From Methanobacteriota archaeon (GTDB lineage Archaea; Thermoplasmatota; Poseidoniia; Poseidoniales; Thalassarchaeaceae), in the NCBI GenBank assembly GCA_004195615.1, contig PSPW01000002.1, positions 58,045 through 122,044 of the forward strand: 64,000 nt of DNA, written 5' to 3'. This document shows, one piece after another, positions 1 through 34,596 of the stretch. How positions within the stretch are numbered: position 1 is the stretch's first letter; every line of letters starts with the position of its first letter. Under the pieces are notes generated by a model. That model had not been told where the DNA came from. It saw nothing but the letters and a program-made list of their open reading frames with translations, and searched no databases. A program made the translations under genes and the position numbers.

Positions 1-362
1 GGCTATCCTGTCTGACTCTAGCTATCGATGCGGATGCAACTACAATTACCACTGTTGAAGGATTGGCCGATGGCCATCATTTGCACCCCATTCAAAAGAC
101 CTTCTCGGAATTCGGAGGGAGTCAATGCGGATTCTGTACTCCGGGTTTCCTAGTCGTAATTTCAGCTCTACTATCTGAAAATCCCAGACCTGATGAAGAA
201 GAGATTAAGGGGGCAATAGAGGGAAATCTTTGTCGTTGTACTGGTTTCCAGCAGATTGTCGATTCGGTGAAGGCGGCCTCTGAAATCCTAGTCTCTGGAA
301 CTGGAATTGAAGACTCGACTGTCCCCAAGAGCGACCCGCATCCAGGATTTGGTGGTAACTAG
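1..362 (+). CDS. Xanthine dehydrogenase/aldehyde oxidoreductase family small [2Fe-2S] subunit, C-terminal part (5' end outside window)
   Basis: Frame runs from the window edge to TAG at 360-362. Translation carries the GFCTPG and CRCTGF cysteine motifs of the second (helical) 2Fe-2S domain of CoxS/XdhA-like subunits. Confidence 0.85.
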   Translation, partial: LSCLTLAIDADATTITTVEGLADGHHLHPIQKTFSEFGGSQCGFCTPGFLVVISALLSENPRPDEEEIKGAIEGNLCRCTGFQQIVDSVKAASEILVSGTGIEDSTVPKSDPHPGFGGN

Positions 363-363
363 A

Positions 364-3171
364 ATGACGGAAAAGGGAGGGAGCGAGGAACAAGCGAAAA
401 ATGATGAAGAGATTATCGGATACCGCCAACAGCCCGGAAAAATCCCCTTTTCTAGACCTGGCTCTGGAGGGAAGAATAGATTCTCTGAGGCGACTGACTC
501 CGAATTGATCCCTAGTTCACAAGGTGGTTCTTTGAAACAACCATGGGGGCCTCATAAGCATGACGAAATAGTGAGTGGGCGAGTAATCGGAAAACCGACT
601 GCACTGGTCGATAGTTCTTGGAAAGTAACTGGTCAAGCCCATTATGGTGATGATGTACGGCTCCCAGGAGAGTTGATTGGGAGAATTGTCCGTTCTCCCC
701 ACCATTACGCGAAGATTCTCTCGGTAGACTGTTCCAAGGCCCTTGAGTTACAAGGGGTAGTTGCGGTTGCAACGGGTGCGGACGCGAAAAACCGATTCGG
801 AGTCCTTCCTGTGACAAAGGATGAGCATGCGATGGCGGTCGAGAAAGTTCGACATGCTGGTGATCTTGTGGCATGCGTGGCTGCAGTTGACGAGTCTACT
901 GCTAGAGAGGCAGAAAGGCTGATTGAGGTTGAGTACGAGATTCTAGACTCGATTCATGACATGCGTAAGGGACTTGAGAATAGTGAGGAGCCGATTCATG
1001 ACCGAGGTAACTATCACATTGGGGAGTCGAACATCCAAAAGAGGGTTTTCCAAGAATTCGGTGACATTTCTGGGATGGCTCAATCTTCAATCGCCAGTCA
1101 CAAGAAAAGTTGGTTATTCGCGGGAGTGAATCATGGATTCACAGAGCCCCATGCAGTGGTTGCTAACTGGGATCCATCGGGCAGACTCACCCTATACACC
1201 CCCCAACAAGTTCCTCACTATCTCCACAGAGCGCTGGCTGACGTATTGGAGATACCAATGCATCAGATCAATGTGCATAGGACATTTGTTGGAGGAGGTT
1301 TTGGTGGAAAATCCGATCCTTTTCCTCATGAAATGTGTGCAGCAATTCTCGCAAGGAAATCCGGAAGGCCCGTGCGAATAACATTCGACAGAGAGGAGGT
1401 TTACTGGGTAAATAGAGGCCGTCACCCATCTAGAATTGAAATGAATCTTCATGCTGACGAACAGGGGAGAATCTGTGGGATTGAGACGGACGCACTAATT
1501 GATGGTGGGGCCTTCGCCTCTTTCGGACATGTTACGACTTACTACAATGGGGTGCTCCACACAGCACCATACGAGATTGGTGCTTTCCACTACACTGGAG
1601 CCAGGGTTTGGACGAATAAACCGGCCAGTGGGGCCATGAGAGGGCATGGTGCGGTAAACTCGAGATGTGCGGTAGAAGTAGGATTGGATGACTTGGCTGA
1701 AGATCTCCATGTAGACCCGATTACGCTTCGCTTAGCAAATCTTCTACCCCCTCACTCAGCGACAATTACGGGATTTAGAGTAACCAGCATTGGAATGAGA
1801 GAGTGTCTAGAGAGAGTGAAGATAGAGAGCGGCTGGGAGAAGAAATTCAGAAATCTACCTTTGGGCAAGGGGATTGGCATTGGTTGTGGATTCTTCATTT
1901 CAGGTAGTGGTTTGCCCATCCACTGGGACCCGAATAAATTCCCCCATGCGACTGTTCACCTGAAGGTGGACATGGATGGAGGAGTAACGGTTCACACCGG
2001 TGCTGCCGACATAGGGCAGGGGTCCGATACCGTTGTTGCCCAATCTGTTGCGGAGGTACTAGGTTTGCCTCTTGACATGATTCGAGTCAAATCCAGAGAT
2101 TCAGATACTTCTCCGGTCGACCTGGGATCATACTCGTCTAGAGTCACGTTCATGAATGCTAATGCTACTATCTCTGCAGCAATTCAGATCAGAGATAAAC
2201 TGCTTGATGCAACGGTGGAAATCACAGGCGCCGACAGAAGTGGTTTGGTGATTGGTGATCGCCGAATTTTCCTGAAAGACGATCCAGCAGTAGGCGTGTC
2301 ATATCTGGAGGCTCTGCACAAGGCGCAAGAAGACAGAGGGGCATTGGTATCATCGGGAGCATACAGAACGCCGCCGATGGGTAAAACTCACAAAGGGGCT
2401 GCAGCGGGCCTAGCGCCTGCATACTCTTTCTCTGCCTATGTTGCAGAAGTAACTGTTGACGTGGAGACTGGTCAGACCAAAGTGGACAAAGTCTGGGCAG
2501 CACATGACTGTGGAAAGGCCCTAAACCCATTAGCAGTAAAGGGGCAAATTATCGGTTCCTGCCATATGGGCATGGGCCAAGTCCTTTCAGAAGAGATGCG
2601 TTATGGCCGAAATGGGAATCTGATGAACCCAGACCTCCTTGATTACAAAATACCGAGCGTCCATGAAATGCCTGAAGTAGTTCCGATTATCGTGGAGTCT
2701 AACGATCCAGAGGGCCCCTTTGGGGCAAAAGAAGCTGGGGAGGGTCCTCTGCTCCCAATTCTTCCGGCTGTTTGCAATGCTGTGTACGATGCAGTTGGAG
2801 TAAGGACCTCGGAGCTTCCCATGACACCTGAGAAGGTTTTCAAGATGATAGAGAAGCGATGCAGGACAGAAGGAGTATCTGATCCAACGGATCTTGAATG
2901 CCCGTCTCTTGAGTACTCAGATCTACAATCAATTCTCGAGAAGAGAGGCGATGAACACAGGCTAAGGGACAAAGAAAGAAGGCTTGACGAAGAAAGGAAG
3001 GACTACTACAATGGAGCTCTGTTCGGACTCGATCCTTCAGTTCCTCCAGATGAAGTTGATCCGAGATGGGAAGTTAGAGTTGCTCCTGATGAAGAATACC
3101 TCACATCCCCTCGCCTTGCAGGAAGTGCTTGGAAACACATTGAGAGAAGACACTTGGAGGGGACAAAATGA
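364..3171 (+). CDS. Molybdopterin-binding large subunit of a xanthine dehydrogenase family hydroxylase/reductase
   Basis: ATG at 364 lies 1 nt after the small-subunit stop (track start 307 is TTG and overlaps). GGGFGGK motif and Ald_Xan_dh_C-like region starting IGKPTALVDSSWKVTG. Long protein with about 65-aa N-terminal and about 130-aa charged C-terminal extensions relative to typical large subunits. Confidence 0.9.
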   Translation: MTEKGGSEEQAKNDEEIIGYRQQPGKIPFSRPGSGGKNRFSEATDSELIPSSQGGSLKQPWGPHKHDEIVSGRVIGKPTALVDSSWKVTGQAHYGDDVRLPGELIGRIVRSPHHYAKILSVDCSKALELQGVVAVATGADAKNRFGVLPVTKDEHAMAVEKVRHAGDLVACVAAVDESTAREAERLIEVEYEILDSIHDMRKGLENSEEPIHDRGNYHIGESNIQKRVFQEFGDISGMAQSSIASHKKSWLFAGVNHGFTEPHAVVANWDPSGRLTLYTPQQVPHYLHRALADVLEIPMHQINVHRTFVGGGFGGKSDPFPHEMCAAILARKSGRPVRITFDREEVYWVNRGRHPSRIEMNLHADEQGRICGIETDALIDGGAFASFGHVTTYYNGVLHTAPYEIGAFHYTGARVWTNKPASGAMRGHGAVNSRCAVEVGLDDLAEDLHVDPITLRLANLLPPHSATITGFRVTSIGMRECLERVKIESGWEKKFRNLPLGKGIGIGCGFFISGSGLPIHWDPNKFPHATVHLKVDMDGGVTVHTGAADIGQGSDTVVAQSVAEVLGLPLDMIRVKSRDSDTSPVDLGSYSSRVTFMNANATISAAIQIRDKLLDATVEITGADRSGLVIGDRRIFLKDDPAVGVSYLEALHKAQEDRGALVSSGAYRTPPMGKTHKGAAAGLAPAYSFSAYVAEVTVDVETGQTKVDKVWAAHDCGKALNPLAVKGQIIGSCHMGMGQVLSEEMRYGRNGNLMNPDLLDYKIPSVHEMPEVVPIIVESNDPEGPFGAKEAGEGPLLPILPAVCNAVYDAVGVRTSELPMTPEKVFKMIEKRCRTEGVSDPTDLECPSLEYSDLQSILEKRGDEHRLRDKERRLDEERKDYYNGALFGLDPSVPPDEVDPRWEVRVAPDEEYLTSPRLAGSAWKHIERRHLEGTK

Positions 3172-4151
3172 AGATGCCACCATTCCGAGTGCTCTCGCCC
3201 AAGAGCCTCGATGAAGCACTTCATATGTCACGAGATCTTTCTGATTCGGGGGAAGCTTTCGACTGGATTGCTGGCGGAACAGACCTCTTGCCGAACTACA
3301 AGTGGCACATCAATGTGAAGAGCCATGTAATTTCGCTCTCATCGATTCCTGAATTACGAAAATTAAGTGGGAACCACATTGGTGCGATGGTTAGCATCAA
3401 TGACTTAGCGGAAGATGCAGTCACGCATCCAGTTCTAGCCAAGGCTGCAAATTCCGTTGCCAGTGTTCTGATTAGGAAATCTGGAACCGTAGGAGGAAAC
3501 ATTTGCCTAGACACCAGATGCTACTGGGTGAACCAATCTGAGACATGGAGGGAGTCCATTGACTGGTGCTACAAGTGTGATTGTGGGACGGGAGCCGATT
3601 GCAGAGTCATACCGAATCAGAACACATTGTGTGTTGCGACGTATCAGGCAGATTTAGCTCCCGTACTGATGTGTCTTGATGCCACGATACATCTTGCTTC
3701 GCCCGCTGGAACTAGATCGTTGCCACTTTGCGAGTTCTTTGAGTTGGATGGAATGACAAGAAATGTACTAGAAAGTGGGGAGTTAGTGACTCACATCACC
3801 ATACCAGAAGATTCTGCAGAATGGAGTGGGGACTACCAGAAGCTGAGGCAGAGAGACTCCTGGGACTTCCCGGAAGCAGGTGTTGCCGTCCTTTGGAAGG
3901 GCATTTCTAGTAGCGGCCCTGAAAGCCTTCGAGTAGCGACAACGGGTCTCGAGTCGATTCCAAGCCTGCATCTGGAGGAGACGAAAGAGGCTCTCTCAAG
4001 ATGGAGGGGCGCAGAGACCATCGAAGATCTTGCCGAATCGATTAGGAAGGCGGTAAAACCAGTGCAGAACACATGGTTCTCCCCATCATATAGAAGAAAG
4101 ATGGTGAAGGTCTTAACGAAGAGGGCGTGCAGGGATTTACTGGTGAGTTGA
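3168..4151 (+). CDS. FAD-binding medium subunit (CoxM/XdhB-like) with cysteine-rich insertion
   Basis: ATGA overlap with the large-subunit stop. N-terminus MKMPPFRVLSPKSLDEAL and GTVGGN motif typical of FAD_binding_5. Seven-cysteine insertion (CLDTRCYW...DWCYKCDCGTGADC...LC) follows GGN. Confidence 0.85.
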   Translation: MKMPPFRVLSPKSLDEALHMSRDLSDSGEAFDWIAGGTDLLPNYKWHINVKSHVISLSSIPELRKLSGNHIGAMVSINDLAEDAVTHPVLAKAANSVASVLIRKSGTVGGNICLDTRCYWVNQSETWRESIDWCYKCDCGTGADCRVIPNQNTLCVATYQADLAPVLMCLDATIHLASPAGTRSLPLCEFFELDGMTRNVLESGELVTHITIPEDSAEWSGDYQKLRQRDSWDFPEAGVAVLWKGISSSGPESLRVATTGLESIPSLHLEETKEALSRWRGAETIEDLAESIRKAVKPVQNTWFSPSYRRKMVKVLTKRACRDLLVS

Positions 4152-5098: not shown

Positions 5099-5227
5099 CA
5101 AAATCTGGAAGAACATGCTATAGAAACTAGCAACGCGAACTTCGCTCAGTAAAATATAACCGTGATTCGATTATCCGACAGATGTTGCTTGAGCCAACGA
5201 CTCAACTAGGAAAGGGATTTGGAGACC

Positions 5228-6838
5228 ATGGCAGAAGACATGGATGCTGAAGAGCGTTTCAATAGGAACGTGATGTACGCCCTAGTTATTACGTCAATAA
5301 TGCTCCTTGTCCTTCCCATGTTTTTCGTAGTCGGCAAGTCAACCAATTACTCGGCTTACGATGATAGCGGTTTGGGGCAACTATCCGATATGAGAGAGAG
5401 TTTCGAAGGCGAGTATATCGAGAATAGGGACGACGGTTACTATATTGCGAACACTATGTCGACTCCAATGCTGGTCAATGATTGGAAGGACCCTCATCGG
5501 ACGCTCCTGACGATTATCGCACCTGAGAAACCAATCGATAAGACTGAGGCGGATGAGATATTCCGCTTCGTCACAGAAAAGGGCGGCAAAGTAATAGTTG
5601 CAGCGGACAATACGCAAGCGCACAATTTGGCAATACTATTCGGCGTCAGATACATGGACGCGCCATTGAAGGACGATAAGCAGCATTGGGTTTACACACA
5701 GCAGGGTGTACAAGAAATTGACTGGGGTAACGTTTGGAGCGCTTCCCCGGTAAATCAAGACATAGACGAGATGTCGCCCGGTGCACTAATGCAGGGTTGC
5801 ACCACATTCCAAATCCAGAACCCGGATGGTCTGAATGATTGCAGACTACCAGTAATGTACAGGGGACCTACTGGGATGATGTTTGAGGCTACAGACAAAG
5901 ATCTGGAGGATCCGAATCACAGGAGAGTCATGACTCTTGGTAGAGCCTCACCGTCCGCCTTTATTGACAGGGCTGGCGATGGAGATGCAACAAACCCCGA
6001 GAATCCGGCCACGGGCGATCTGAGGTTGATGATGAGATTCGACTACCCCGGAATCAAAGTCCTAGACAGAATAGCAGATGAGGGCAGGGGCGCATTCTCG
6101 GCTGGGGTGGGGGAATTGGAAGTAACTGGGAGCATTGTTTTCGTTTCTGATGATGAGTCGTTCTCGAATTTGCTTTGGGATTTGGGAATGGCACAGGACC
6201 AAGGCCTGAACCAAGACTGCTCAGCTATCGGCGAATACACTCGAAACAACTGCTGGACGCAGGAAATCCTGAATAACAACGATTGGGGAGGAAATGAGAG
6301 ATTCTTCAAACTCCTAGTTTACGACATGATGGAGTTTGACAATGTTGATCTTAACGCGCCAATCAGGTCTGATCCTGGCAACTTCCAAATTGTTTTTGAC
6401 GAGAGCAGGCATGTGACGGGAATTCTCTCAGAGCCTTTCGTTCAGACGATGGGGACGATTGTCCTCCTAACTTCCAACCAGTTCCTGAAGTGGTTGGTAG
6501 TCCTAAACGTAGCACTACTACTACTTGTGGCGATGATGGTGGTTCCCGAGAAAGAAAACTGGAGGCACGTTTTCGATTTAACCAAATTCAACCAACGTCC
6601 GGAAAAACTGGATCCTGCAACATATAGGGATAGAGTCAGGAGAGCGCTACTAACCAAAGTGAGAATTCACCATGATCTGACTCGGGATGAGATGGCAATG
6701 AGACCACCTCCTGAAGTTCAGGCGATGATTGGGGACCCTCGTCTCGTGGAATTGGCTTATAGCCAAAGCCGAACTTACACACCACAAGAGTTGCGCAAAT
6801 TGATGCAAAACATTCGCCGCTGGGGAAAAAATAACTAA
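5228..6838 (+). CDS. DUF4350-like membrane protein (TM helix at each end, large extracytoplasmic domain)
   Basis: First ATG at 5228 (track start 5219 is TTG). N-terminal TM VMYALVITSIMLLVLPMFFVV and C-terminal TM LVVLNVALLLLVAMMVV. Sits directly upstream of the MoxR/DUF58 genes, as is typical of DUF4350-MoxR-DUF58 modules. Family assignment is by architecture and context only. Confidence 0.5.
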   Translation: MAEDMDAEERFNRNVMYALVITSIMLLVLPMFFVVGKSTNYSAYDDSGLGQLSDMRESFEGEYIENRDDGYYIANTMSTPMLVNDWKDPHRTLLTIIAPEKPIDKTEADEIFRFVTEKGGKVIVAADNTQAHNLAILFGVRYMDAPLKDDKQHWVYTQQGVQEIDWGNVWSASPVNQDIDEMSPGALMQGCTTFQIQNPDGLNDCRLPVMYRGPTGMMFEATDKDLEDPNHRRVMTLGRASPSAFIDRAGDGDATNPENPATGDLRLMMRFDYPGIKVLDRIADEGRGAFSAGVGELEVTGSIVFVSDDESFSNLLWDLGMAQDQGLNQDCSAIGEYTRNNCWTQEILNNNDWGGNERFFKLLVYDMMEFDNVDLNAPIRSDPGNFQIVFDESRHVTGILSEPFVQTMGTIVLLTSNQFLKWLVVLNVALLLLVAMMVVPEKENWRHVFDLTKFNQRPEKLDPATYRDRVRRALLTKVRIHHDLTRDEMAMRPPPEVQAMIGDPRLVELAYSQSRTYTPQELRKLMQNIRRWGKNN

Positions 6839-6855
6839 TAAATGGAGAGAAAAAA

Positions 6856-7920
6856 ATGAGCGAGACAGAATCAGCAAAAGGGATGCAGACGCCTGGTTCG
6901 GGTGTACACGATACGACTTTGGCCAAGAAGGCTCAAGAGGCACGTGGATCAAGTAAGAAAGACGAGATATTGGCAGCCACCGGAGCGATGGGGCAGGCAA
7001 TTAGCACCGAAGTTCAGAAAGTGATCGTTGGAAAGGAGCATGTGATTGACAACGTGATGGTCGACATTCTGTCGAATGGAAACCTTCTGTTCGAGGATTT
7101 CCCCGGCCTAGCGAAGACGCTGATGACCAATACCTTTGCAGATGCACTGGGATGCGACTTCAAGAGAGTGCAATTCACCCCCGACTTACTTCCCGCAGAC
7201 ATTACTGGGACCAACATATATGATGCCAAGAAAGGAGAGTTCACATTCAAGCCGGGACCTATTTTCTGCAATCTACTACTTTCTGATGAGATCAACAGGG
7301 CACCACCAAAGACTCAGGCTGCCCTACTTGAGGCCATGCAGGAGAAGCAAGTTACAATCGGGGTTGTTACTCACAAACTGCCTGCCCCTTTCCTAACGAT
7401 GGCTACTCAGAACCCAGTGGAGCAAGAGGGAACATATCCTCTCCCTGAAGCTCAGCTTGACAGGTTCATGATGAAGATGATGGTTGGTTACCCTGATAGG
7501 GCTGACGAGAATGAAATCCTGCAGAGGAGGATCAACCGGAAGAAAGACGAAGTAGATGTCAACAGCATCACAGACCCAAGCATCGTAGTCAAGATGCAGA
7601 ATTCCTGCGAGGAAGTGTATGTAGACAGATCAGTTAGGGAGTACATGGTCGACATTGTGGCCAGGACTAGAGAAGACCCAAGAGTTCTCGTGGGTTCGTC
7701 CCCTAGAGGTTCTCAGGCCCTTCTGAAGACTGGCAGAGCGGTTGCAGCAATGCGCGGAAGGGACTTCGTTACCCCCGACGATGTGAAGTCGGTTGCAGAG
7801 CTAGCAGTTGCCCACAGACTCATTCTAAAGCCAGAGCACCAGATTAAGGGACTGGAACCCGGTGAGGTCGTCCGAAATATTCTACACGGAAAGAATGCAG
7901 CGAATGTTCCGACCGTCTGA
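6856..7920 (+). CDS. MoxR-family AAA+ ATPase
   Basis: Walker A-like PGLAKT and Walker B/sensor stretch LLSDEINRAPPKTQAALLEAMQE. Conserved MoxR C-terminal region (VSPRGSQALL...AAMRGRDFVTPDDV). Confidence 0.9.
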   Translation: MSETESAKGMQTPGSGVHDTTLAKKAQEARGSSKKDEILAATGAMGQAISTEVQKVIVGKEHVIDNVMVDILSNGNLLFEDFPGLAKTLMTNTFADALGCDFKRVQFTPDLLPADITGTNIYDAKKGEFTFKPGPIFCNLLLSDEINRAPPKTQAALLEAMQEKQVTIGVVTHKLPAPFLTMATQNPVEQEGTYPLPEAQLDRFMMKMMVGYPDRADENEILQRRINRKKDEVDVNSITDPSIVVKMQNSCEEVYVDRSVREYMVDIVARTREDPRVLVGSSPRGSQALLKTGRAVAAMRGRDFVTPDDVKSVAELAVAHRLILKPEHQIKGLEPGEVVRNILHGKNAANVPTV

Positions 7921-7939
7921 GTGATGATGAGGTGGAAAG

Positions 7940-9259
7940 ATGGCCTGGAGCCGAAAATCAGCGATGTTTGCGTCGCTGTCGGTAGCGATGTACCTCCTAG
8001 GCCTGGTTCTACGAAACCAACAACTCGTGACCGTTGCAGTGGTTCTTCTTTCGTTCCTCACGTGGGCGGCCCTGAGAACCGCACATGGTGACGTCGCTTC
8101 CTCCGGAAGAAGAGTAGAAGATGCAGCCATGGACGAGGGTGTGCAACTTCAGAGCATCGTCGCCATGAGGAAGACTTCGTCCGCCAGAGTTTTTGAGGAT
8201 GGAGAGATAGACGTAACCCTGCGAATTCAGAACAAATCCAGCATGGCCAAAATCCTGGAGCTACGTGACAGGGTTCCAGAGGTAATGAGAATCAAGAAGG
8301 GCGCGAACTACGTGTTGATGGAAATCGGGCCTAAGAGGGAGACTGAGATTTCTTACACCATCGAGACCCCTCTCAGAGGCTTCTACACGATAGGCCCGGT
8401 ATGTATCAGAGTCCAAGATGAGCTGGGTCTTTTCCACAATGAAAAAGAAGTTCAGCTCTACGACGACTTCTTGGTTTTCCCGAAGATGGAAGACATCAAG
8501 GATGCGATGATTAAGAGCAGAGTGCCCAAGATCTTCACAGGGGCTGTCAACATCAGGAACCCCGGCGAGGGATCGAACTTCTACAACCTGAGAGAATACA
8601 TGCAAGGGGATCCAATGAGGAAAATTAACTGGCAAGCCACGGCGAGACAGGATGGAAAGATGATGGTGAATGAGTTCGAAAGGGATGCGGTGAGTGACGT
8701 CATCATTCTTGTTGACAGCAGGTCAGTTAGTGAGACGGGACCGGTGAGCAGAAACTCTCTGGTATACAGCACAAGGGCTGCAGCTAGTCTGACTCAGCAC
8801 TTCCTCTCTAGAAGAGATTCAGTTGGCCTAGTTGTCTACGGTGACGAGGTTGTTTCAGTAGACAGGGACACTGGAAAGAAGCAGTTGTACGTCATACTGA
8901 CGAAGTTGGCCGGAGCTATGGCAAAAGGAAACACCCCACTTAAGATTGTGACTACCAGAATAATGCCTCACATCCACAGAGGAAGCCCGATCATCATACT
9001 ATCTCCTCTTGAGGACGACCCAACGATTGTCGATGCGGTTAGGGACCTCAGGGCTAGGAATTTCGAGGTTACTATACTGTCTCCAAGTAGCCTAGAGTTC
9101 GAATTCGACGCTAGGAGAATAGACAGGACCGGTTATGAGGTCCTAAAAACCGAGAGAGATATTTTGATGACCGAACTCAGGGGATTGGGTGCTTACGTGA
9201 TGGATTGGGAGCCGGACATGTTGCTATTCACGGCCTTGACCGGGGCAAGGGGATTCTGA
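7940..9259 (+). CDS. DUF58 domain protein (MoxR partner, vWA-like)
   Basis: N-terminal TM helices and DUF58 signature region (REYMQGDPMRKINWQATARQD). Confidence 0.85.
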   Translation: MAWSRKSAMFASLSVAMYLLGLVLRNQQLVTVAVVLLSFLTWAALRTAHGDVASSGRRVEDAAMDEGVQLQSIVAMRKTSSARVFEDGEIDVTLRIQNKSSMAKILELRDRVPEVMRIKKGANYVLMEIGPKRETEISYTIETPLRGFYTIGPVCIRVQDELGLFHNEKEVQLYDDFLVFPKMEDIKDAMIKSRVPKIFTGAVNIRNPGEGSNFYNLREYMQGDPMRKINWQATARQDGKMMVNEFERDAVSDVIILVDSRSVSETGPVSRNSLVYSTRAAASLTQHFLSRRDSVGLVVYGDEVVSVDRDTGKKQLYVILTKLAGAMAKGNTPLKIVTTRIMPHIHRGSPIIILSPLEDDPTIVDAVRDLRARNFEVTILSPSSLEFEFDARRIDRTGYEVLKTERDILMTELRGLGAYVMDWEPDMLLFTALTGARGF

Positions 9260-9272
9260 GGTGGTGGATGAG

Positions 9273-10202
9273 ATGGCAGAACAAGGAAGTAAGAGGCCAG
9301 TTGACACCTCTAACTTGTATGATGGCAAGGTTGTGAGGTCATCTGCACCCAGCAGGAAGAAGGCTGCGGGAACTCTGAAGGCAGACACTGGTATTCCTGA
9401 TGATGCAGTCCCAGAAGTCGCCATTCCAAATTGGATAGAAGCGATTTTTGGCGGACCTGTGCTGGTGAATCGGGAGTTTGTTTCTCCGAATAGGATGGTT
9501 CTGACCCTGCAAATGTGGGCTATTGGATCTCTTTTCGTGCTTTGTTTCCTGACATTCATGCTCACTCCAGTTTCAGGCACAGCATGGTTTACACTAACTA
9601 ACATGATTGGGATTGGTTTCCTGGGACTGTGGCTGCACCTGCTGCTGATTCTTGTCGGAGCGATATCTGGTTTCTGGGGAGTGTGGCAGCGAGATCAACG
9701 GGCTATGCTGCTTTCCTATGTGACCCTAATCCTAGTGACAATCAGGTTTGCAGGCAGCAAAGTGGAGTTTGGTTTGAGCTTCCTCCCTGATAATGAAGTG
9801 ATTCAGAAACTGCTTCTCATTCTCTATGCCGTTTTCCTTGTTGTTTACATAGAGATCTCCAGCGCGGTGATTCGTTTCTCGATGCTGGATACCTCAATCA
9901 GGACAGGTGAGGTTTATGTGATGAACGTGAAGAGTATCACTGACAAATACAACAAGGCATTGGGATACACTCCAGCGGTTGCAGCCGTGGTGGCAACACT
10001 GACCCTATTCATCAATTTCTTCGTCCCTCTTTTTGTACGAATTCTGGACCCGGTGGCTGCGAATAGGCTCGAGGAAAGTGTGGAGCTAACGAGCGTTTAC
10101 GGAGTTGCACTGGGAACCATCATAGTCTTCATAGTAATTGCATTGATGTTCGCAATCAACCTCCCACTGAGGATTCAACAGTACCTAGAAAGTCAATCCT
10201 AG
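9273..10202 (+). CDS. Polytopic membrane protein (about 6-7 TM), unknown function; last gene of the MoxR module
   Basis: ORF begins at GTG 9261, 1 nt after the DUF58 stop; first ATG is at 9273. Multiple hydrophobic helices and no recognisable catalytic motif. Confidence 0.55.
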   Translation: MAEQGSKRPVDTSNLYDGKVVRSSAPSRKKAAGTLKADTGIPDDAVPEVAIPNWIEAIFGGPVLVNREFVSPNRMVLTLQMWAIGSLFVLCFLTFMLTPVSGTAWFTLTNMIGIGFLGLWLHLLLILVGAISGFWGVWQRDQRAMLLSYVTLILVTIRFAGSKVEFGLSFLPDNEVIQKLLLILYAVFLVVYIEISSAVIRFSMLDTSIRTGEVYVMNVKSITDKYNKALGYTPAVAAVVATLTLFINFFVPLFVRILDPVAANRLEESVELTSVYGVALGTIIVFIVIALMFAINLPLRIQQYLESQS

Positions 10203-11300
10203 TTACAGGAAACCACCCATCAAACCTAGATCACTGATCACAAGCATGGCCACGGCCTCGACGACTGGAGCTGCCCGTGGCCCTATGACCGGATCATGCC
10301 GCCCTCCAACCTTGAGAGGCTGGGTCTCGTTACTTGGGAGGTGGAGTGTGAATTGCTCCCTAGGTAGACTGCTAGGTGGTTTGAAGTGAACCAAGACTCG
10401 AATTGGGGCACCGGTAGATCTCCCTCCCAGAGCGCCGTCTGCTTCGCCGGTCTCTGAACCCTCCAATAGTGGAGAGTCTGGTCCTGGAATCCACATGTCA
10501 TTGTTCTCAGAGCCCCTCATCTGAGAAGCCTCAATGCCATTGGAGAACTCAATGGCTCGAGCTCCGGGAATTGCCATCAGCCCTCTGGCCAGAGAGGGCT
10601 CTATACCGTCGAACCAAGGTTCTCCAACTCCAATTGGGAGGCCCCGTATCAGCAACTCAACGACTGAGCCGATGGAGTCCTTCTCTCTTCGGATCTGTTT
10701 GATCACATCGGCCATTCTTGTGGCGGCTTTGGGATCGCGGCAGTTGAGTCTGGACATTTCCGACCCCTCTTCTAGTGGTCCTGATGTATCGAGTTCAATC
10801 AGTGGCCTTGCTGATATCTCTCCGACTCTGCTTAGATGGGCATCACAAGACCACCCGGACTTTTCTAAAATTGTCCTAACCTGACTTCCTGCAGAGACCA
10901 GTCCCAGAGTGAGCCTAGCTGACTGGGAACCTCCGCCACGAGGATCGTTGGAACCCTTGGATCTAATTTCCTCCACCATATCTGCGTGTCCAGGACGAGG
11001 GTGGTCTGGGAGGAATCCGTAGTCTGATGGTCTGGCATCGGAGTTCCTAACTAGCATCAGAAGTGGCCATCCGGTCGCCTTGCCCTCATGGACTCCGGAG
11101 AGAATCTCGCATTCATCGAGTTCCAATCGTGATGACATGCCCTTCCTGCCTGGTCTTCTCTGGGACAAATCATCAGAAAGGGCCTGCAAATCAATTTCTG
11201 TTCCAGGAGGAATTCCCTCGACCAATGCACCAACGCACTTGCCGTGGCTCTCACCGAATAGTGTCACCTTCAACTGGTCACCTAGGTCCATACCCATCAT
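10203..11300 (-). CDS. aroC: Chorismate synthase
   Basis: N-terminus FGESHGKCVGALVEGIPPG and conserved chorismate synthase blocks throughout. Tail-to-tail with the upstream membrane protein with zero spacer. Confidence 0.9.
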   Translation of the reverse strand: MMGMDLGDQLKVTLFGESHGKCVGALVEGIPPGTEIDLQALSDDLSQRRPGRKGMSSRLELDECEILSGVHEGKATGWPLLMLVRNSDARPSDYGFLPDHPRPGHADMVEEIRSKGSNDPRGGGSQSARLTLGLVSAGSQVRTILEKSGWSCDAHLSRVGEISARPLIELDTSGPLEEGSEMSRLNCRDPKAATRMADVIKQIRREKDSIGSVVELLIRGLPIGVGEPWFDGIEPSLARGLMAIPGARAIEFSNGIEASQMRGSENNDMWIPGPDSPLLEGSETGEADGALGGRSTGAPIRVLVHFKPPSSLPREQFTLHLPSNETQPLKVGGRHDPVIGPRAAPVVEAVAMLVISDLGLMGGFL

Positions 11301-12166
11301 GCCACCTCCTCTAGCAGCTCCTCTAGCAGCTCCTCACTGCTTGCAAATCTGGTTGAAATCACGGAAAGCCCCATCCCAGAGATTTTTCGGGATATGGATT
11401 CTGTGTCATCCTCGAAGCAAACTATGGCAATTGCGGGACCGGACCCGCTGACTCCAGAAGCTATGGCCCCTGATGCTATGCAGAGATTGCTGATTCTCAA
11501 AGCCTCGTGATCACCAGTAGCGGCGGATACTGCAATTCCATTTGATGACAAGGCATCTAGGGCCGAACCGCTCATTATCGAAGCCAATGATCTCTCAAAG
11601 ATTGGCCTCTGCTCTGAGAAGCTAGTCGGTGAAATTTCCGCTGAACGTTTGCCTCTGAGGCAAATTAGTACTGACAGACTATCATCCATTGAGCCTTGAA
11701 TAATTACTGAATCGGCTGCCCCCATACTTGGGTCGACCAGTTTCCAACCGGATTCTAGAGAAGCCCAATTATCATCCGTGCTTCCTGTGATGGCGCAATT
11801 TGACATCAACTGAGACTTAGCTGCAAGGTCTGCTATTTCTGAATTAGATAGTCCTGTCCATGCGCAAGAATTCAGTGCCCTAATAGCCGCACATGACAGA
11901 GCCGAGCTGGACTTTAACCCTTGTCCGACTGGGACCGTACTCTCAATCTTCCACCCGAATTCCACAGGTATTGGTAGTCCCTCTTCCCTCCAGCATGACT
12001 CTATAGCATCTAGAAGTCCATGTTCGTCATTATTCACTTCGAGCGTCGTGTCCACAATCTGGACCTCTGTTGCTAGTTGAATTCCTACTGAGCAACCCCT
12101 GTCGGACCCCAATGCATGGAGAATTGAGATTGCCCCATTGGCCCTCCCAGATCCTATGACATTCAC
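11297..12166 (-). CDS. aroK: Archaeal GHMP-kinase-type shikimate kinase
   Basis: GHMP kinase motif region (GLKSSSALSCAAIRA), size about 290 aa, located in the shikimate cluster. GTG start at 12166. Confidence 0.8.
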   Translation of the reverse strand: MNVIGSGRANGAISILHALGSDRGCSVGIQLATEVQIVDTTLEVNNDEHGLLDAIESCWREEGLPIPVEFGWKIESTVPVGQGLKSSSALSCAAIRALNSCAWTGLSNSEIADLAAKSQLMSNCAITGSTDDNWASLESGWKLVDPSMGAADSVIIQGSMDDSLSVLICLRGKRSAEISPTSFSEQRPIFERSLASIMSGSALDALSSNGIAVSAATGDHEALRISNLCIASGAIASGVSGSGPAIAIVCFEDDTESISRKISGMGLSVISTRFASSEELLEELLEEVA

Positions 12167-13095
12167 TTCTCGGCCACCCCCGCATTGAGGGGAAAACCAA
12201 CGTGTCTAGCTCTATTGTCAGTGATGACAGAAATCTTGTCTCCTTCTTTTACTTGGGTTACTGAAATTACCCCTCCATTAGAGGTGATCAATCTTACAGT
12301 CTCTGCTTGCTGAACTACTATTTGTCCCTCTGAACCTGAAACTTCGAATCTAATCATTAGCAGTGGGCGAGTCTCCACTTTCAGTCGTCCGATTGTAGCC
12401 TTCTCTTGTTCACCGGAAGAGGACAGAACTGCTACTTCGTCACCAGAGATTAGTTCACTTAGGTACTTGGTTTTTCCATCTGCCATTAGGACGTAAGAAT
12501 GGACCGCCCCCGCATTTACTCTAAATGGACGAGTGGGGACGTATTCTGATTGAATTGTCTCTCCGTGGAGAAGGCAAAGATTGCCTGAAAGGGATCCAAT
12601 GGCCATCCCTTGCCCATCATTTATTCTCCTTGTTAGGTCAACGCACACCCTTTCTCCCACTCCTGCCCCATCGATTGACAGGACCCGGGCCTCGGCGATA
12701 GTGACTCCAATCTCTGGCGGTTCCTCCTTCTCCCAGATCCCTCCGAGTACTCTAATCGCGTCATCGACCATCTGGATAGGGACTAGAATAGCGTCGACGC
12801 CCCCTCCCATGGCAAAGGCTGCACCGTTGAGTTCTACTTCCTCGTCGATTGCTGCAGCGATCCTGGTACTTGTCCCCCTTGATGCTGCGACTAGATTCTC
12901 CAGTGGGACCATGGTCCAATCGGAGCATCTGACTAGAATCCATGGCACTAGGCCAATGAGGGACAATGCTTCTTCCTGATCTGATGAATCGTCTATTTGT
13001 ACTTCCGAAACATCGTCTGAAAATCCTGTCCAGAATCGACTAACTACATCCATATTGGAATATTCTTCGCCTTCGGAAAGAGACCAGATCTGCAT
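12163..13095 (-). CDS. 3-dehydroquinate synthase II (archaeal aroB')
   Basis: ATG start. Sequence matches the archaeal DHQ synthase II family in composition and length, between aroA' and aroK in the cluster. Confidence 0.8.
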   Translation of the reverse strand: MQIWSLSEGEEYSNMDVVSRFWTGFSDDVSEVQIDDSSDQEEALSLIGLVPWILVRCSDWTMVPLENLVAASRGTSTRIAAAIDEEVELNGAAFAMGGGVDAILVPIQMVDDAIRVLGGIWEKEEPPEIGVTIAEARVLSIDGAGVGERVCVDLTRRINDGQGMAIGSLSGNLCLLHGETIQSEYVPTRPFRVNAGAVHSYVLMADGKTKYLSELISGDEVAVLSSSGEQEKATIGRLKVETRPLLMIRFEVSGSEGQIVVQQAETVRLITSNGGVISVTQVKEGDKISVITDNRARHVGFPLNAGVAEK

Positions 13096-13099
13096 CGAT

Positions 13100-13894
13100 T
13101 CACCTCAGATGCCTTGCTGCCTCTTCTGCATTGGCCCCATCATGGACTATCGCTCTTAGGGACCTAATGTGGGATGCTGGGTCTTCTGCAGCGAATACAT
13201 GCCTGCCAATACACACTCCAGAACCCCCAGCGTTGATTGATTTCTCAACCAGTTCTAGAACCTGTGAGAATTTCTCATCTCTTGGCCCTCCAGAAACCAG
13301 AACTGGGATTGGAACAGATGAAGTTACGATTCTGAAAGACTCTTCGGAACCAGTCCATGGAACCTTGACAGCGTTGCAACCCAACTCCCATGCTAGTCTC
13401 GCAGCATGTGCAACCCCCCCAGTGAGGTCTGATGGATCGACAGACAGATTGACTCCTCTTGGATAGAACATCCCCAACACCGGAAGATCTGCTTCGAAGG
13501 CCTCGGTAGTGATTCTAGACATTCGACCAATCATTTCTGGTTCTGCTGGATCTCCGAGGTTTACCTGGGCTGACATCCCTATTGCCCCTCTGGAATGGCT
13601 CTCCGAGGCGTTAGAGACCAGGACCTTGTCCTGGGATCGAGGGCCACCGTGGATGGTGGATAGGGATGCATGGCAGACAAATCTGCCCCAAGAAGTTCTG
13701 GTAAAATGGTGACTCACCGCCCCCTTATGCATCACTATTGCATCTGCCCCGCCCTCTATCGCCGCATCAACTGCTGAATCGCTGTCCATGATTCCGTGTT
13801 CGGGGAATGAGGACGCACTGTGGTCCATGGGCACCCAAACCCCCCTACCCCTAGGAAGGATTGTTTCCAAGCGTCTTGCTAGGGCATCTGCCAC
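13100..13894 (-). CDS. 2-amino-3,7-dideoxy-D-threo-hept-6-ulosonate (ADH) synthase, DhnA-type class I aldolase (archaeal aroA')
   Basis: VPMDHSASSFPEHG and GADAIVMHKG blocks typical of the fructose-bisphosphate aldolase/ADH synthase family. GTG start. Confidence 0.85.
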   Translation of the reverse strand: MADALARRLETILPRGRGVWVPMDHSASSFPEHGIMDSDSAVDAAIEGGADAIVMHKGAVSHHFTRTSWGRFVCHASLSTIHGGPRSQDKVLVSNASESHSRGAIGMSAQVNLGDPAEPEMIGRMSRITTEAFEADLPVLGMFYPRGVNLSVDPSDLTGGVAHAARLAWELGCNAVKVPWTGSEESFRIVTSSVPIPVLVSGGPRDEKFSQVLELVEKSINAGGSGVCIGRHVFAAEDPASHIRSLRAIVHDGANAEEAARHLR

Positions 13895-20238: not shown

Positions 20239-20353
20239 GGAATGGGTGAGTCAGTTGGGCAAAATTGGAGTTGCTGGAAAGAAAGCGATTTTGTCAACTT
20301 CTGGAACTGGGAATTTAGGCAATTTTAATGTCCTCCTACTCTGTAGGAGGGGT

Positions 20354-23300
20354 ATGCCCAGTGTCAACGCGGTGAGGTCGAGACTGTCTCTTCTTCTCGT
20401 TGGCCTGATGCTTTTCCCGAGTGTCATGACGATTTTATCCTACCAAATTGGGAACGACGAACTGTTGGATGACACAAGGATGGACTCGATTGATCTCGCT
20501 CTAGAGACCCATTCTATCCTTGGAGTCCCCGAATCTGGCGACCCTTCTCATGGATGGAAGAGCGACTCTGGAAATGTCGGAGAAGCGTCGCTATTCTATC
20601 GGATTGCGACATATGTCCCGATAGAAGAGTGGGTAACTACGACTGGGGAGGGTTACATGTCTGGTTGGTTCGCTCTGGCGCACGATTACCCAGTACCATC
20701 CGATTGGAGAACTGAATTGGGCGATCTGGGGATGGAGTGCAGAACATTCTACTCGCCACAGGGATTCCACTGCAACGTACCGAAGATGACACCATTGGAA
20801 CTATCCGATATTGGCGTAATCGGTGCTTTCCGACTTGATTCAACGGACAAACTGGCTCCAGATGTCATACCCCTGGTTGAAGGAGAATCGAGTGGGGCAG
20901 TGATGCAAGGGGAACGATACGTGATGAACGTCGTATTGAGTGGTTCTGACGAATTAGCAAACCTGATTTCTACTGGAATCGAGGTTGTTGACTACCGAAC
21001 AGATAGGATAGTGGAAGTCGTAGTAGATCAGAAGGATGTGGTTGAACTCGTTAGTCTGGATTTCGTCGAGTGGGTGGAGCCGAAATATCCAGTGCAGCTA
21101 GATAACGAGGCAGCAGCAGGCATCATCGATGTTGATTGGGTCGGCGAGGCTTCCAACATGGTTTCCTTCGGAGGAGGGTCACTGACAGGGGCTGGGGTAA
21201 TCGTTGGAGTAATGGACTCGGGTCTAGACACTGTAGTGGAATGCACCAGCATCTCCAATTGCAACTCCCTTAATAGCGGCATTCATGCAGACTTTGCCGG
21301 TAGGATAGCAGGGGTCGTATCATACACTTGCGGCAGCTGTACAGATGGTCCAGAGGATCAGCATGGTCATGGGACCCATGTGAGCGGATCTGTTCTGGGA
21401 GATGGTACAAACTCGCCCGACGGTTCTGACAATAGCGGAATGGCACCGGGTGCGCATCTGTTCATGCAGTCCATTCTGTGTGGCGCTAGCCTCTGCAATC
21501 CCTCCTACGATATCTTCTTCACCGAGGCACACAATGCTGGTGCGCGGGTCCACACAAATTCATGGGGCTCTGGCCCTAGCGCCGATGGCACTAGTTGTGG
21601 TGGGAGTTGTTTGGCGTACTACAGCTCCAGCGCGTTTGAGATTGATACCGAAGCCAATTCCCTCACTGACCTTACGATTCTATTCGCCATGGGGAATGAT
21701 GCAATGGACTGCACATACAACTCGTACGGACAGTCATCCTGCTATGGGGGAAAAGATGGCGAGATCAACCTAGGTGCGATGAATCAACAGGCTACTGCTA
21801 AGAACATCCTGTCAGTAGGTGCCTCGGAAAACCTCCGTGACACTTTGCCGCTATATGCTACGCCATGGAGGAATTTCTGTAACAGTGATCCTCCATGTGA
21901 TCTACCCTTCACAAATGAGAAGTGGGGCACAAGCCCAATCAGAGATGATACGGCCAGTGATAATCCAGAGGGGATGGCTGCATTCTCCAATAGAGGCCCT
22001 ACAAATGATGGGAGGATCAAACCGGATATAGTGGCGCCGGGAACATGGATACTATCAACCAAATCCGAATTGCGAACTGACTCTCCAAGTTCTGATGTCG
22101 GGGACTATTACACTCACTTGTTTGGAACCTCGATGGCTACCCCAATCACAGCAGGTTCGGTCGCATTGGTAATCGAATACCTGAATAACATAGGGGCTTA
22201 CAATTGCAACCTTGCTAACAATCCTTCAAGTGACCAATGCCCGGAGTCCGCCTTAATCAAGGCAATACTTGCTTCGGGTGCACACGACATGGATGGACAG
22301 TACACGACCGGAGGAAATTTCAATGGGAACGGGGCAGAGGAAAAGGCACCGAACAACCACGAAGGATGGGGTCGGATTGACCTCCAACAGCTAGTGTATT
22401 CTGGTTTCACAGAGGGAGTCGAGATTTCCACATTGGAGAGTCATTCTTTCAGACTTTCAGTTCCAGATACCGGGATTGAGGATTTCCGAGTCGTGCTTTC
22501 ATGGAATGACCCAGCAAACTCCCCCAGTGCAGGAAAGCAGTTGATTAACGATCTTGACATCCTCTTGAAGAGTCCCAGTGGGACAGTACAGACGTACACA
22601 AATGACGATTTGAACAATCTAGTGGGGATTTCACTGGGCGAGAATCCGGAAGTGGGCGATTGGGAAATCATAGTCACCGGTGCAAACGTCCCATCTGGGC
22701 CTCAGAAGTACTACCTAGCTTCCAGCATAGGGGTCATCGAAGATATGAGGCATCCAGTATCGGATGGATTTATTGAGCCTGGTTTCCAAACCGGGTCTAT
22801 CTTCACCGAAACCACGATGTCAAGCGGTGGCGACCATCTCTGCGCGATTCTGGACGATTCCTCACTTCAGTGCTGGGGGGACAACTCATTCGGACAATTA
22901 GGAGATGGGACCACGACCGACAGGCTGACGATGACCGAAGTGGGGCTCGATGCAGCAAGGACCGCAGTTTCAATCAGCTCGGGGAAGGACCATACGTGCT
23001 CCATCCTGGATAATGGTGGTCTGCAATGCTGGGGCAGGAACAACCATGGCCAACTAGGGGATGGCACTGCCGTTCATTCGAGTTCACCCGTCGATGTGAG
23101 CCTGTCGGGAGTGCCCGTTCAACTCTCCTCGGGAGATTGGCACAGTTGCGCCATCCTGGATGATGCTAGCCTGCAATGCTGGGGGGCTAACGAAGCCGGC
23201 CAGCTCGGGGATGGGACCAATGCCGATAGCAGCACCCCTGTATCCGTCTCCATCGGGGAAAACGTCCTAGCAGTCTCAACCGGGTCCAACCATACATGCG

Positions 23301-26872: not shown

Positions 26873-26957
26873 TGGTGCAGGGGGCAGGATTTGAACCTGC
26901 GAAGCACTACGCACTGGGACCTAAACCCAGCCCCTTTGACCACTCGGGTACCCCTGC
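26873..26957 (-). tRNA. tRNA-Leu (anticodon TAG), class II, CCA encoded
   Basis: Reverse complement folds as GCAGGGG acceptor, 3-bp D stem, anticodon stem-loop CTGGG-TTTAGGT-CCCAG, long variable arm, T arm GCAGG-TTCAAAT-CCTGC, discriminator A and CCA. 3' end abuts the stop codon of the giant gene. Confidence 0.85.
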
Positions 26958-27012: not shown

Positions 27013-27097
27013 TGGTGCAGGGGGCAGGATTTGAACCTGCGAAGCACTACGCACTGGGACCTAAACCCAGCCCCTTTGACCACTCGGGTACCCCTGC
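27013..27097 (-). tRNA. tRNA-Leu (anticodon TAG), second identical copy
   Basis: 85 nt identical to 26873..26957, separated by a 55-nt spacer. Confidence 0.85.
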
Positions 27098-28232: not shown

Positions 28233-28685
28233 CTAGATTTGCTTCATTATTTCCAAGGTAGCACGGATCCAGTCAGCGGCATAGTCATCATAGTCCAAGT
28301 CACAATCTATCCTATTATTCACCCTAGAGCCGCCCTTTTCCTCAAGGATGGTGTCCCATTCCTTGCCTGACTCACAGAAGAACTCGAATGCAGTATCGCC
28401 CAAGGCGAGAACTGCATAGCTAACACCCTCCATGCTGCCCCCCTCAGATTCCTGCACAGAGTCGTACAGATCCTGTGCGTTTACAGGCTGCTCTCCCTCG
28501 CCCCATGTACTGCAGATAATGATTAGTCTCTTCGCAGAGGACAATGTTTTCAAAGAAATGTCTTCCATATCCATTACTGTTGGGTTGAGGTCGGATATTC
28601 CGGCCAAATGTCCTGCATCTTCCGCCAGCTCCTCAGCATTCCCAGTCTCTGTACCGAAGATTAGAAGTAAGTCTCTGTCATTCAT
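28233..28685 (-). CDS. Flavodoxin
   Basis: LLIFGTETGNAEELAE FMN-binding N-terminus. Track start 28694 is GTG; ATG at 28685 (MNDRDLLLIFGT). Confidence 0.85.
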   Translation of the reverse strand: MNDRDLLLIFGTETGNAEELAEDAGHLAGISDLNPTVMDMEDISLKTLSSAKRLIIICSTWGEGEQPVNAQDLYDSVQESEGGSMEGVSYAVLALGDTAFEFFCESGKEWDTILEEKGGSRVNNRIDCDLDYDDYAADWIRATLEIMKQI

Positions 28686-28752
28686 TGTAACCACTCAGCT
28701 ATGTCGTCCACTACAGAATTAGAATAAGCCATACTTTTCTTGTTTACAAACT

Positions 28753-34534: not shown

Positions 34535-34596
34535 ACTCACACCCCAGCATTCTTCATCCGCCCTATTCTGCGTGTTTTGTGGAGAAGAGTGCCGAG

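Follow-up and report, generated by a model that had tools for sequence, protein, structure and literature searches.

The first 4,151 nucleotides of a 64,000-nucleotide stretch of archaeal DNA (contig PSPW01000002.1 of assembly GCA_004195615.1, positions 58,045 to 122,044; this whole stretch is called the window below) hold three co-directional genes in the order small, Mo and FAD subunit. They form a translationally coupled gamma-alpha-beta operon of the xanthine-oxidase family, within the 4-hydroxybenzoyl-CoA reductase (HBCR) clade. The host, which the initial annotation had described from the sequence alone as a marine archaeon, belongs to Ca. Poseidoniales (Marine Group II, MGII). HBCR removes a hydroxyl group from an aromatic CoA ester in anaerobic, aromatic-degrading bacteria, and to our knowledge this type of chemistry has to date been described solely for organisms that break down aromatics as strict or facultative anaerobes. 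MGII are uncultured and globally abundant, and in oxic surface seawater they rank among the most abundant archaea; their known repertoire centres on protein and lipid degradation. We found that the MGII enzyme is a genuine member of the HBCR clade and also a distinct variant, with two homologue-free extensions, extra cysteines close to the predicted iron-sulphur cluster, and an aerobic archaeal host.

Like HcrCAB of Thauera aromatica (1RM6/1SB3) and HbaBCD of Rhodopseudomonas palustris, the enzyme has two [2Fe-2S] sites, a Mo-pterin site and an FAD site; judged from the sequences, these together with a four-Cys [4Fe-4S] loop make up every cofactor site of HBCR. The Thauera enzyme was the best match in both sequence and fold (43.6% identity for alpha, 38% for beta). 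Automated pipelines already label the proteins '4-hydroxybenzoyl-CoA reductase' (JGI) or 'aldehyde oxidase / molybdopterin-dependent oxidoreductase' (NCBI), and a literature search returned no work that connects MGII or Poseidoniales to hydroxybenzoyl-CoA, benzoyl-CoA or aromatics.

The Mo subunit is closest to HcrA

The Mo (alpha) subunit contains the Pfam domains Ald_Xan_dh_C, MoCoBD_1 and MoCoBD_2. Its top match in the PDB was HcrA (1rm6_A; 7e-190, 637 bits), with residues 74-831 aligned to HcrA 10-764; its identity to HcrA was 43.6% over 750 aa. The next match, CoxL, scored 268 bits, and no xanthine, aldehyde, CO or quinoline enzyme scored higher than that. HcrA thus stood far ahead of the ordinary xanthine and aldehyde dehydrogenase clade, a close match to which the initial annotation had seen as a threat to its assignment.

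Among the NCBIfam models, the HBCR equivalogs ranked first for all three subunits, with scores of 172.3 bits for the small subunit (TIGR03193, cut-off 257.8), 814.5 for the Mo subunit (TIGR03194, cut-off 994.55) and 250.5 for the FAD subunit (TIGR03195, cut-off 404.55). None of the cut-offs was reached. We therefore calibrated TIGR03194 on bacterial relatives encoded in class-I benzoyl-CoA reductase (BCR) gene clusters. These pathway-linked enzymes also failed (P0242 772.8, P0244 784.7, P0243 933.3), and only the Thauera-like representative P0256 passed (1301.7), which indicates that the cut-off marks a narrow proteobacterial core and not the functional clade.

Conserved motifs of the Mo subunit include Q282 in QQVP, GGGFGGKS317, Y394, AMR426GH428G, GSYSSR593 and E793 in GAKEAGEG. 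As reference residues of bovine xanthine oxidase (XO) we used Gln767, Glu802, Arg880, Phe914 and Glu1261, with their conserved spacing. On that numbering, the equivalents are Gln282, Ser317, Tyr394, His428 and Glu793 in the Mo subunit, and Gln214, Thr249, Tyr326, His360 and Glu726 in HcrA. At the level of sequence, then, the subunit retains the catalytic Gln and Glu and lacks the Glu/Arg pair that binds purines. It follows HcrA in this, with Tyr and His where XO has Arg880 and Phe914. This inspection of active-site residues, which the initial annotation had proposed, also turned up no CO dehydrogenase (CODH) signature, as neither the form I (AYRCSFR) nor the form II (AYRGAGR) loop occurs in the Mo subunit. 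Moreover, the motifs close to the active site are the same or nearly the same in MGII, in the relative P0241 and in the pathway-linked P0242: GGGFGGKSDPFPHE, VTTYYNGVL, GAMRGHG, GSYSSRVTFM and GAKEAGEG. An AlphaFold2 model of the 935-aa Mo subunit, built on an alignment of 14 MGII sequences only, was unusable (pLDDT 41).

The FAD subunit carries an HcrB-type cysteine loop

The FAD (beta) subunit comprises the Pfam domains FAD_binding_5 and CO_deh_flav_C. The former match spans 210 residues for 168 profile positions, and CutM and CoxM align to the subunit in two blocks that omit residues 114-167. Directly after the GGN motif lies an insertion of 42 aa with seven Cys, at residues 113, 118, 134, 137, 139, 145 and 155, much as the initial annotation had described it (about 40 residues, seven Cys). 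Since the remaining 284 residues of the subunit include only three Cys, the loop cysteines are far from a chance accumulation.

The top PDB match of the FAD subunit was HcrB (1rm6_B; 1.5e-46, 162 bits; next match 76 bits), and the alignment runs unbroken through the insertion. C118, C134, C145 and C155 are in register with HcrB C122, C138, C146 and C155, which are reportedly the [4Fe-4S] ligands in the structure of Unciuleac et al. 2004. As an independent check, all four positions are Cys in 120 of 120 diverse FAD-subunit homologues (38-47% identical to the query, from bacteria and Thermoplasmata), and the FAD subunits of all relatives' operons that we examined have the same loop. The alignment with HcrB suggested in the initial annotation thus shows the insertion to be homologous to the HcrB loop, and we propose C118, C134, C145 and C155 as ligands of a predicted [4Fe-4S] cluster. 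In the same 120 homologues, Leu or Met stands at position 113 and Ala at position 137, and a gap falls at position 139. C113 is common to HcrB (C117), whereas C137 and C139, together with the 3-residue insert in which this 'CDC' lies, differ from HcrB; the two are MGII-specific and nearly invariant in MGII.

An AlphaFold2 model of the FAD subunit, based on a 136-sequence alignment, was confident (pLDDT 87, pTM 0.89), and its best Foldseek match was again HcrB (1rm6_B; E 4e-28, TM 0.84), so that the modelling called for in the initial annotation agrees with the sequence searches. Within the loop, pLDDT was 50-79, which is expected when a cofactor loop is modelled with its cluster left out.

A homologous Cys loop is also present in the FAD subunits of the Escherichia coli periplasmic aldehyde oxidoreductase PaoABC (5G5G) and of the Methylobacillus aldehyde oxidase (5Y6Q), since both PaoB (5g5g_B) and 5y6q_B align through it. 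A four-Cys [4Fe-4S] motif has been described for the FAD subunit of PaoABC (bioRxiv 10.64898/2026.07.15.738685). As PaoABC works oxidatively, the direction of electron flow cannot be read from the loop alone, and to call the loop the hallmark of the reductive HBCR, as the initial annotation did, was too strong. Its statement that xanthine and CO dehydrogenases lack the insertion was correct: the loop is absent from CutM and CoxM and from the FAD subunits of xanthine dehydrogenases (XDH). The spacing of the cysteines separates the two kinds of loop. MGII has C-x15-C-x10-C-x9-C and HcrB C-x15-C-x7-C-x8-C, compared with C119-x9-C129-x8-C138-x18-C157 in PaoB, which has three of the four Cys positions in common with MGII and the fourth elsewhere. 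By this sequence measure, the MGII loop is HcrB-type and not PaoB-type. PaoABC is also much more distant overall (PaoC 220 bits, PaoB 71 bits; PaoC-family model 312 against a cut-off of 1180).

These data bear directly on two further readings of the operon. In the literature examined, the genes have been read only as a 'putative xanthine dehydrogenase': Damashek et al. 2021 suggested xanthine catabolism in Thalassarchaeaceae from xdhC/yagS annotations and pbuG transcription (PMC9723583). The sequence does not support this, and we regard a xanthine dehydrogenase for purine catabolism, as MGIIb 'xdhC and yagS' have been understood, as very improbable. Generic XDH models do match the proteins, but the NCBIfam models for XDH gave 278-510 bits against cut-offs of 780-916 and against 814 for the HBCR model. 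In addition, the positions of XO Glu802 and Arg880 are occupied by Ser317 and Tyr394, compared with Thr249 and Tyr326 in HcrA, and the Cys loop finds no counterpart in XDH. A CoxSML-type aerobic CODH has the same three-subunit family architecture, and CoxL was the second-best PDB match of the Mo subunit. Even so, its probability appears negligible, because the diagnostic CODH loops are missing, the CODH models scored far below their cut-offs, CoxM and CutM have no Cys insertion, and no cox accessory genes lie nearby. Both the xanthine dehydrogenase and the CO dehydrogenase reading can be considered effectively excluded.

Relatives and phylogeny

A search of 1.84 billion cluster representatives returned 43,958 relatives. 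Thauera HcrA is represented by P0256, which is 61% identical to HcrA and 40% to the query. Closer to the query than P0256 are P0241 (55%), P0242 (52%) and P0243-P0248 (45-49%). The identity of the MGII subunit to HcrA (43.6%) is comparable to that of the pathway-linked P0242 (42.1%). Several of P0243-P0248 are gamma-alpha fusions (from Ignavibacteriales, Kiritimatiellia and Acidobacteriota); in P0243, P0244, P0247 and P0248 (loci L093 and L095 among them) the small subunit precedes the Mo subunit in a single fused protein of ~935-950 aa. Unrelated genes may also stand between the Mo and FAD genes, as does a 141-aa open reading frame (ORF) in locus L007 or a nitroreductase gene with a SPOR gene in L094.

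The bacterial enzymes P0242, P0244 and P0243 share with MGII the four-Cys loop and a Mo-subunit identity of 44-51%. Unlike the MGII enzyme, they have no N- or C-terminal extensions, and their neighbours include BcrB/C-like, BcrA/D-like, CoA ligase, thiolase and indolepyruvate-type (IOR-like) oxidoreductase genes. Specifically, P0242 (L008) is surrounded by three HGD-D (BcrB/C-like) genes, three BcrAD_BadFG ATPase genes, an AMP-binding ligase, a thiolase and a dehydrogenase. P0244 (L093) adjoins two HGD-D genes, MocA and XdhC, and P0243 (L095, Ignavibacteriales) adjoins a full class-I BCR set, an acyl-CoA dehydrogenase and an IOR-like oxidoreductase. No BCR-type neighbours were present at the P0246 locus.

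In a neighbour-joining tree (Kimura distances, 741 columns, 100 bootstraps), the MGII sequences were monophyletic with a bootstrap of 100. They grouped with P0241 and the Thermoplasmata locus L096 at 84, and this group was joined by P0242 and P0244 at 93. The wider clade that takes in HcrA reached only 56%. Sequence comparison therefore supports the placement of the MGII enzyme in a clade with HcrA and the pathway-linked enzymes, the node that includes HcrA being the weaker one.

In the Thermoplasmata archaeon (L096, GCA_049585415.1) the operon occupies positions 5768-11472, beside ribosomal protein genes, in the order MocA-like, XdhC, small, Mo (774 aa), FAD (328 aa, with the four-Cys loop) and a 162-aa ORF. 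The existence of this operon suggests that Thermoplasmatota had the enzyme before MGII arose. With one uncultured bacterium and one Thermoplasmata archaeon as its closest relatives, the enzyme may either have been acquired horizontally or have arisen within Thermoplasmatota.

Extensions of the Mo subunit

Compared with Thauera HBCR, the MGII enzyme has three additional segments: its Mo subunit is longer by ~64 aa at the N-terminal end and by ~100 aa at the C-terminal end, and its small subunit has a tail of ~25 aa. The alignment places the N-terminal extension ~64 aa beyond the start of HcrA, very near the ~65 aa given initially. The C-terminal extension is indeed highly charged (41% Asp, Glu, Lys and Arg), but it measures about 100-104 aa and not ~130 aa as first estimated.

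Both extensions are kept, with many invariant positions, in 14 MGII homologues of 76-92% overall identity. The N-terminal motif reads GYRQQPGK(L/I)PFSRPGSGG ... QPWGPH.HD, with several positions variable among these homologues. The C-terminal extension contains the invariant motifs RD..RR, Y.NG..FG and P.LAGSAW.H.ERR, and 27 of its 104 positions are invariant in 12 MGII sequences (49-73% identity). This conservation across MGII indicates that the extensions are real protein and not miscalled ORF ends. The nearest non-MGII relatives, P0241 (814 aa) and the Thermoplasmata enzyme, have neither. No match to either extension was found in Pfam or in the PDB at E<=10 (the C-terminal one was searched in the PDB with a profile), and inspection of the N-terminal sequence revealed no signal or Tat motif.

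Two candidate explanations were rejected. The N-terminal PGSGGK does not qualify as a Walker A motif because its spacing is wrong and no Ser or Thr follows the Lys. The C-terminal extension is not a fused copy of the 141-aa ORF of the closest bacterial operon (L007), to which it has no similarity; that ORF, located between the Mo and FAD genes, looks lipoprotein-like.

The sole carrier of an MGII-like N-terminal extension (51% identity) outside the MGII cluster was P0355, a protein of 453 aa. Beyond GGGFGGK (residue ~315) its sequence takes on the character of another xanthine-oxidase-family clade. P0355 is likely to be a chimeric assembly, or else a more divergent lineage with the extension, and was excluded from the analysis.

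Proposed function and its alternatives

We tentatively propose, at somewhat less than even probability, that the MGII enzyme carries out a ferredoxin- or flavodoxin-driven reductive dehydroxylation of a para-hydroxyaryl thioester, that is, 4-hydroxybenzoyl-CoA or a close analogue. In this scheme, reduced ferredoxin or flavodoxin would dock at the [4Fe-4S] loop; one possible source of the reduced donor is the 2-oxoacid:ferredoxin oxidoreductase that the window also encodes. Electrons would then follow an 'inverted' path, from the [4Fe-4S] cluster via FAD and the two [2Fe-2S] clusters to Mo, where the para-hydroxylated aryl-carboxyl thioester would be reductively dehydroxylated. The extensions of the Mo subunit and the three extra Cys by the cluster may be adaptations that serve, among other possibilities, to dock a partner, to help assembly or to protect the cluster in an oxic cell. 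Support for a reductive enzyme comes from HcrA and HcrB as the closest relatives, the HcrB-type cysteines, the 93% clade with BCR-linked enzymes, and the shared motifs close to the active site.

Several observations weigh against this proposal. Unlike Thauera HBCR, the enzyme resides in an aerobic, planktonic archaeal host (with heme A and heme O synthase genes), and Thauera HBCR is reported to be oxygen-sensitive in work cited in PMC12771579. No AMP-forming CoA ligase, BCR or ring-pathway gene was detected in the 64-kb window or the 10 kb upstream, so that the search of the surroundings for CoA ligases and aromatic-degradation genes that the initial annotation had suggested came back empty within ~74 kb. 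Other MGII loci likewise lack such genes, and the two nearest relatives, P0241 and the Thermoplasmata L096 (55% identity), have no BCR or ligase neighbours. Furthermore, all three subunits stay under the equivalog cut-offs, the node uniting the wider clade with HcrA has a bootstrap of only 56%, the loop by itself leaves the direction of electron flow free, and an altered function would be in keeping with the conserved extensions and the extra Cys.

Many of the same observations would fit an enzyme in which the same scaffold is run oxidatively, as a hydroxylase or dehydrogenase acting on an aromatic, heteroaromatic or aldehyde from dissolved organic matter. In such an enzyme, electrons would pass from Mo via the [2Fe-2S] clusters and FAD to the [4Fe-4S] loop and on to ferredoxin, flavodoxin or the respiratory chain, as has been proposed for PaoABC. 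In its favour are the aerobic host with its CtaA and CtaB genes, the lack of BCR or ligase neighbours both in MGII and in its two nearest relatives, and the homologous loops of PaoABC and of the aldehyde oxidase 5y6q. The failed equivalog cut-offs also speak for it, as do the extensions and extra Cys, which are lineage-specific and suggest a changed function. Yet the PaoC, aldehyde and quinoline enzymes scored 220-253 bits against 637 for HcrA, the Cys spacing is HcrB-type, the motifs close to the active site are those of the pathway-linked P0242, and the clade with two BCR-linked enzymes has a 93% bootstrap. We also know of no characterised oxidative member of the HBCR clade, which we count against this possibility. 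On balance, an oxidative enzyme, the main rival of our proposal, seems less likely to us.

A second known reductive dehydroxylase of the xanthine oxidase family is Ucdh, the urolithin C dehydroxylase of Enterocloster bolteae, whose closest characterised relative is HBCR at 32.7% identity (PMC12771579). Ucdh takes electrons from NADH, is described with only FAD and two 2Fe-2S clusters, and acts on a substrate that is not a CoA ester; it dehydroxylates non-CoA phenols para to an electron-withdrawing group (PMC12771579). By analogy with Ucdh, the MGII enzyme might reduce a non-CoA phenolic, such as a free para-hydroxy aromatic acid or ester or a phytoplankton polyphenol, which would fit the absence of a CoA ligase nearby. 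This appears improbable, as Ucdh is NADH-dependent and far less similar to HBCR, whereas the MGII enzyme shares 44-51% identity with HcrA and the pathway-linked enzymes and keeps the ferredoxin-type [4Fe-4S] entry.

Should reductive dehydroxylation of the HBCR type indeed take place in this aerobe, a signature reaction of anaerobic aromatic metabolism would be extended to the oxic ocean, and phenolic compounds would be indicated as MGII substrates. Should the enzyme have been repurposed instead, it would represent the first functionally divergent branch of the HBCR clade. In either case, the question of what MGII use the molybdenum cofactor (Moco) for is made concrete and testable. Moco synthesis has been reported as core in the MGII order, without a clear client enzyme (Rinke et al., PMC6461757), and the operon is a strong candidate for that client. 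A more far-reaching scenario, which we consider speculative and unlikely as a whole, is that MGII use a ferredoxin-driven HBCR-type enzyme as a core function in oxic seawater without BCR. This would mean a new aerobic or hybrid phenolic route, or a new substrate class, with the extensions and extra Cys letting an oxygen-sensitive scaffold work in an oxic cell, and with the enzyme as the main Moco client.

Operon layout and gene boundaries

The coordinates of the operon and of other features are given in Table 1. The Mo/FAD junction is an ATGA overlap at 3168-3171, a single nucleotide separates the TAG stop of the small-subunit gene (360-362) from the Mo start codon, and GGTGG or GGAGG precedes the start codons of both the Mo and the FAD gene. 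The order small, large, medium reported in the initial annotation is thus upheld, and the overlap of stop and start codons that it also reported applies to the Mo/FAD junction only. TTG 307 was considered as an alternative Mo start and rejected, as homologue conservation and the gene calls on identical contigs favour ATG 364.

The window begins within the small (gamma) subunit gene and encodes its C-terminal 119 aa (Pfam Fer2_2, 1.3e-30), comprising the second [2Fe-2S] domain and the C-terminal tail. Contigs with an identical FAD subunit (L001-L006) supplied the missing 5' end. On such an identical contig (L001:6605-7195) the full small subunit measures 196 aa, among them the complete set of eight Cys needed for two [2Fe-2S] clusters (C60/65/68/80 and C119/122/154/156). 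No twin-arginine (RR) motif is visible in its N-terminus; PaoABC, by comparison, is periplasmic.

Table 1. Positions of the operon and of other features in the window.
Feature	Position	Strand	Remarks
Small (gamma) subunit gene, 3' part	1..362	+	5' end cut by window start; coding part 3-362
Mo (alpha) subunit gene, 935 aa	364..3171	+	ATG 364, TGA 3169-3171
N-terminal extension of Mo subunit, residues 1-73	364..582	+	no HcrA counterpart
C-terminal extension of Mo subunit, residues 832-935, 104 aa	about 2857..3168	+	past HcrA alignment end
FAD (beta) subunit gene, 327 aa	3168..4151	+	start overlaps Mo stop
Cys-rich insertion, predicted [4Fe-4S] loop, FAD residues 113-155	3504..3632	+	aligned to HcrB loop
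CARDB-like protein	4127/4172-5098	+	N- and C-terminal hydrophobic segments; within ~20 nt of FAD gene
DUF4350-like/MoxR/DUF58/unknown set	5219-10202	+	3' of CARDB-like gene
Archaeal-type shikimate block	10203-13894	-	chorismate synthase, GHMP-type shikimate kinase, type II dehydroquinate synthase, DeoC-like aldolase
2208-aa ORF	20246-26872	+	S8 subtilase domain, ~13 RCC1 repeats, ephrin-receptor-like module
Two tRNA-Leu(TAG) genes	26873-26957 and 27013-27097	-	same length, 55 nt apart
Flavodoxin	28233-28694	-	
ORFs next to 2254-aa ORF	31914-35562		no Pfam matches
2254-aa ORF	35563-42327	-	no significant Pfam domain; sub-threshold FG-GAP repeat only
Two-subunit 2-oxoacid:ferredoxin oxidoreductase	46732-49622	+	
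Tryptophan 2,3-dioxygenase	57627-58709	+	
Heme A and heme O synthases (CtaA, CtaB)	60286-62366	+	

Distribution and genomic neighbourhood

When one genome for each GTDB species was scanned with two peptides specific to MGII, at least 465 stretches encoding a relative were found. The best 80 of these 465 were all from Poseidoniales (80-97% identity), with the exception of one contig binned as Neomarinimicrobiota; hits named to family level were Thalassarchaeaceae, and the remainder carried no family name. The exceptional contig (L022, JBJKZL010000002.1), deposited as Candidatus Neomarinimicrobiota bacterium, encodes a full-length Mo subunit that is 92% identical to the MGII query and is probably a mis-binned Poseidoniales contig.

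The gene order around the operon is conserved. Upstream lie genes for a 2-oxoglutarate-dehydrogenase-E1-like protein, a Na/Ca exchanger, an NTP_transf_3 protein and an XdhC-family chaperone, followed by an S8-like protein and an HTH_10 regulator and then by the small, Mo and FAD genes. Downstream come a CARDB-like surface protein, the DUF4350/MoxR/DUF58 set and, on the other strand, archaeal shikimate genes. The best models for the NTP_transf_3 protein were DVU_1551 and MocA cytidylyltransferase, both below cut-off. The synteny of the MocA-like and XdhC genes is conserved in MGII, and both genes also occur upstream in the Thermoplasmata locus. With a MocA-like transferase and an XdhC chaperone encoded just upstream, the Mo cofactor is probably of the cytosine dinucleotide form.

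The CARDB-like gene still adjoins the FAD gene in distant MGII loci (in L011 with a 1-nt gap). All MGII loci examined have the shikimate block, at a distance of ~6 kb downstream of the operon; the presence of aromatic biosynthesis genes near an aromatic-type reductase may be coincidence.

Further along, the window encodes aconitase, thiolase and a tryptophan 2,3-dioxygenase in addition to the redox genes listed in Table 1. The heme A and heme O synthases, together with the flavodoxin and the 2-oxoacid:ferredoxin oxidoreductase, indicate that the host is an aerobe with ferredoxin-level redox carriers. One and the same genome segment thus encodes both low-potential carriers and, next to them, aerobic respiration.

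Two very large ORFs were also present. The 2254-aa ORF and the ORFs next to it gave no significant Pfam assignments. The product of the 2208-aa ORF is probably a giant secreted or surface protease, and the tRNA-Leu pair follows directly after the end of this ORF, in a region where the G+C content peaks at 0.56-0.57 (24-28 kb), compared with ~0.49 elsewhere.

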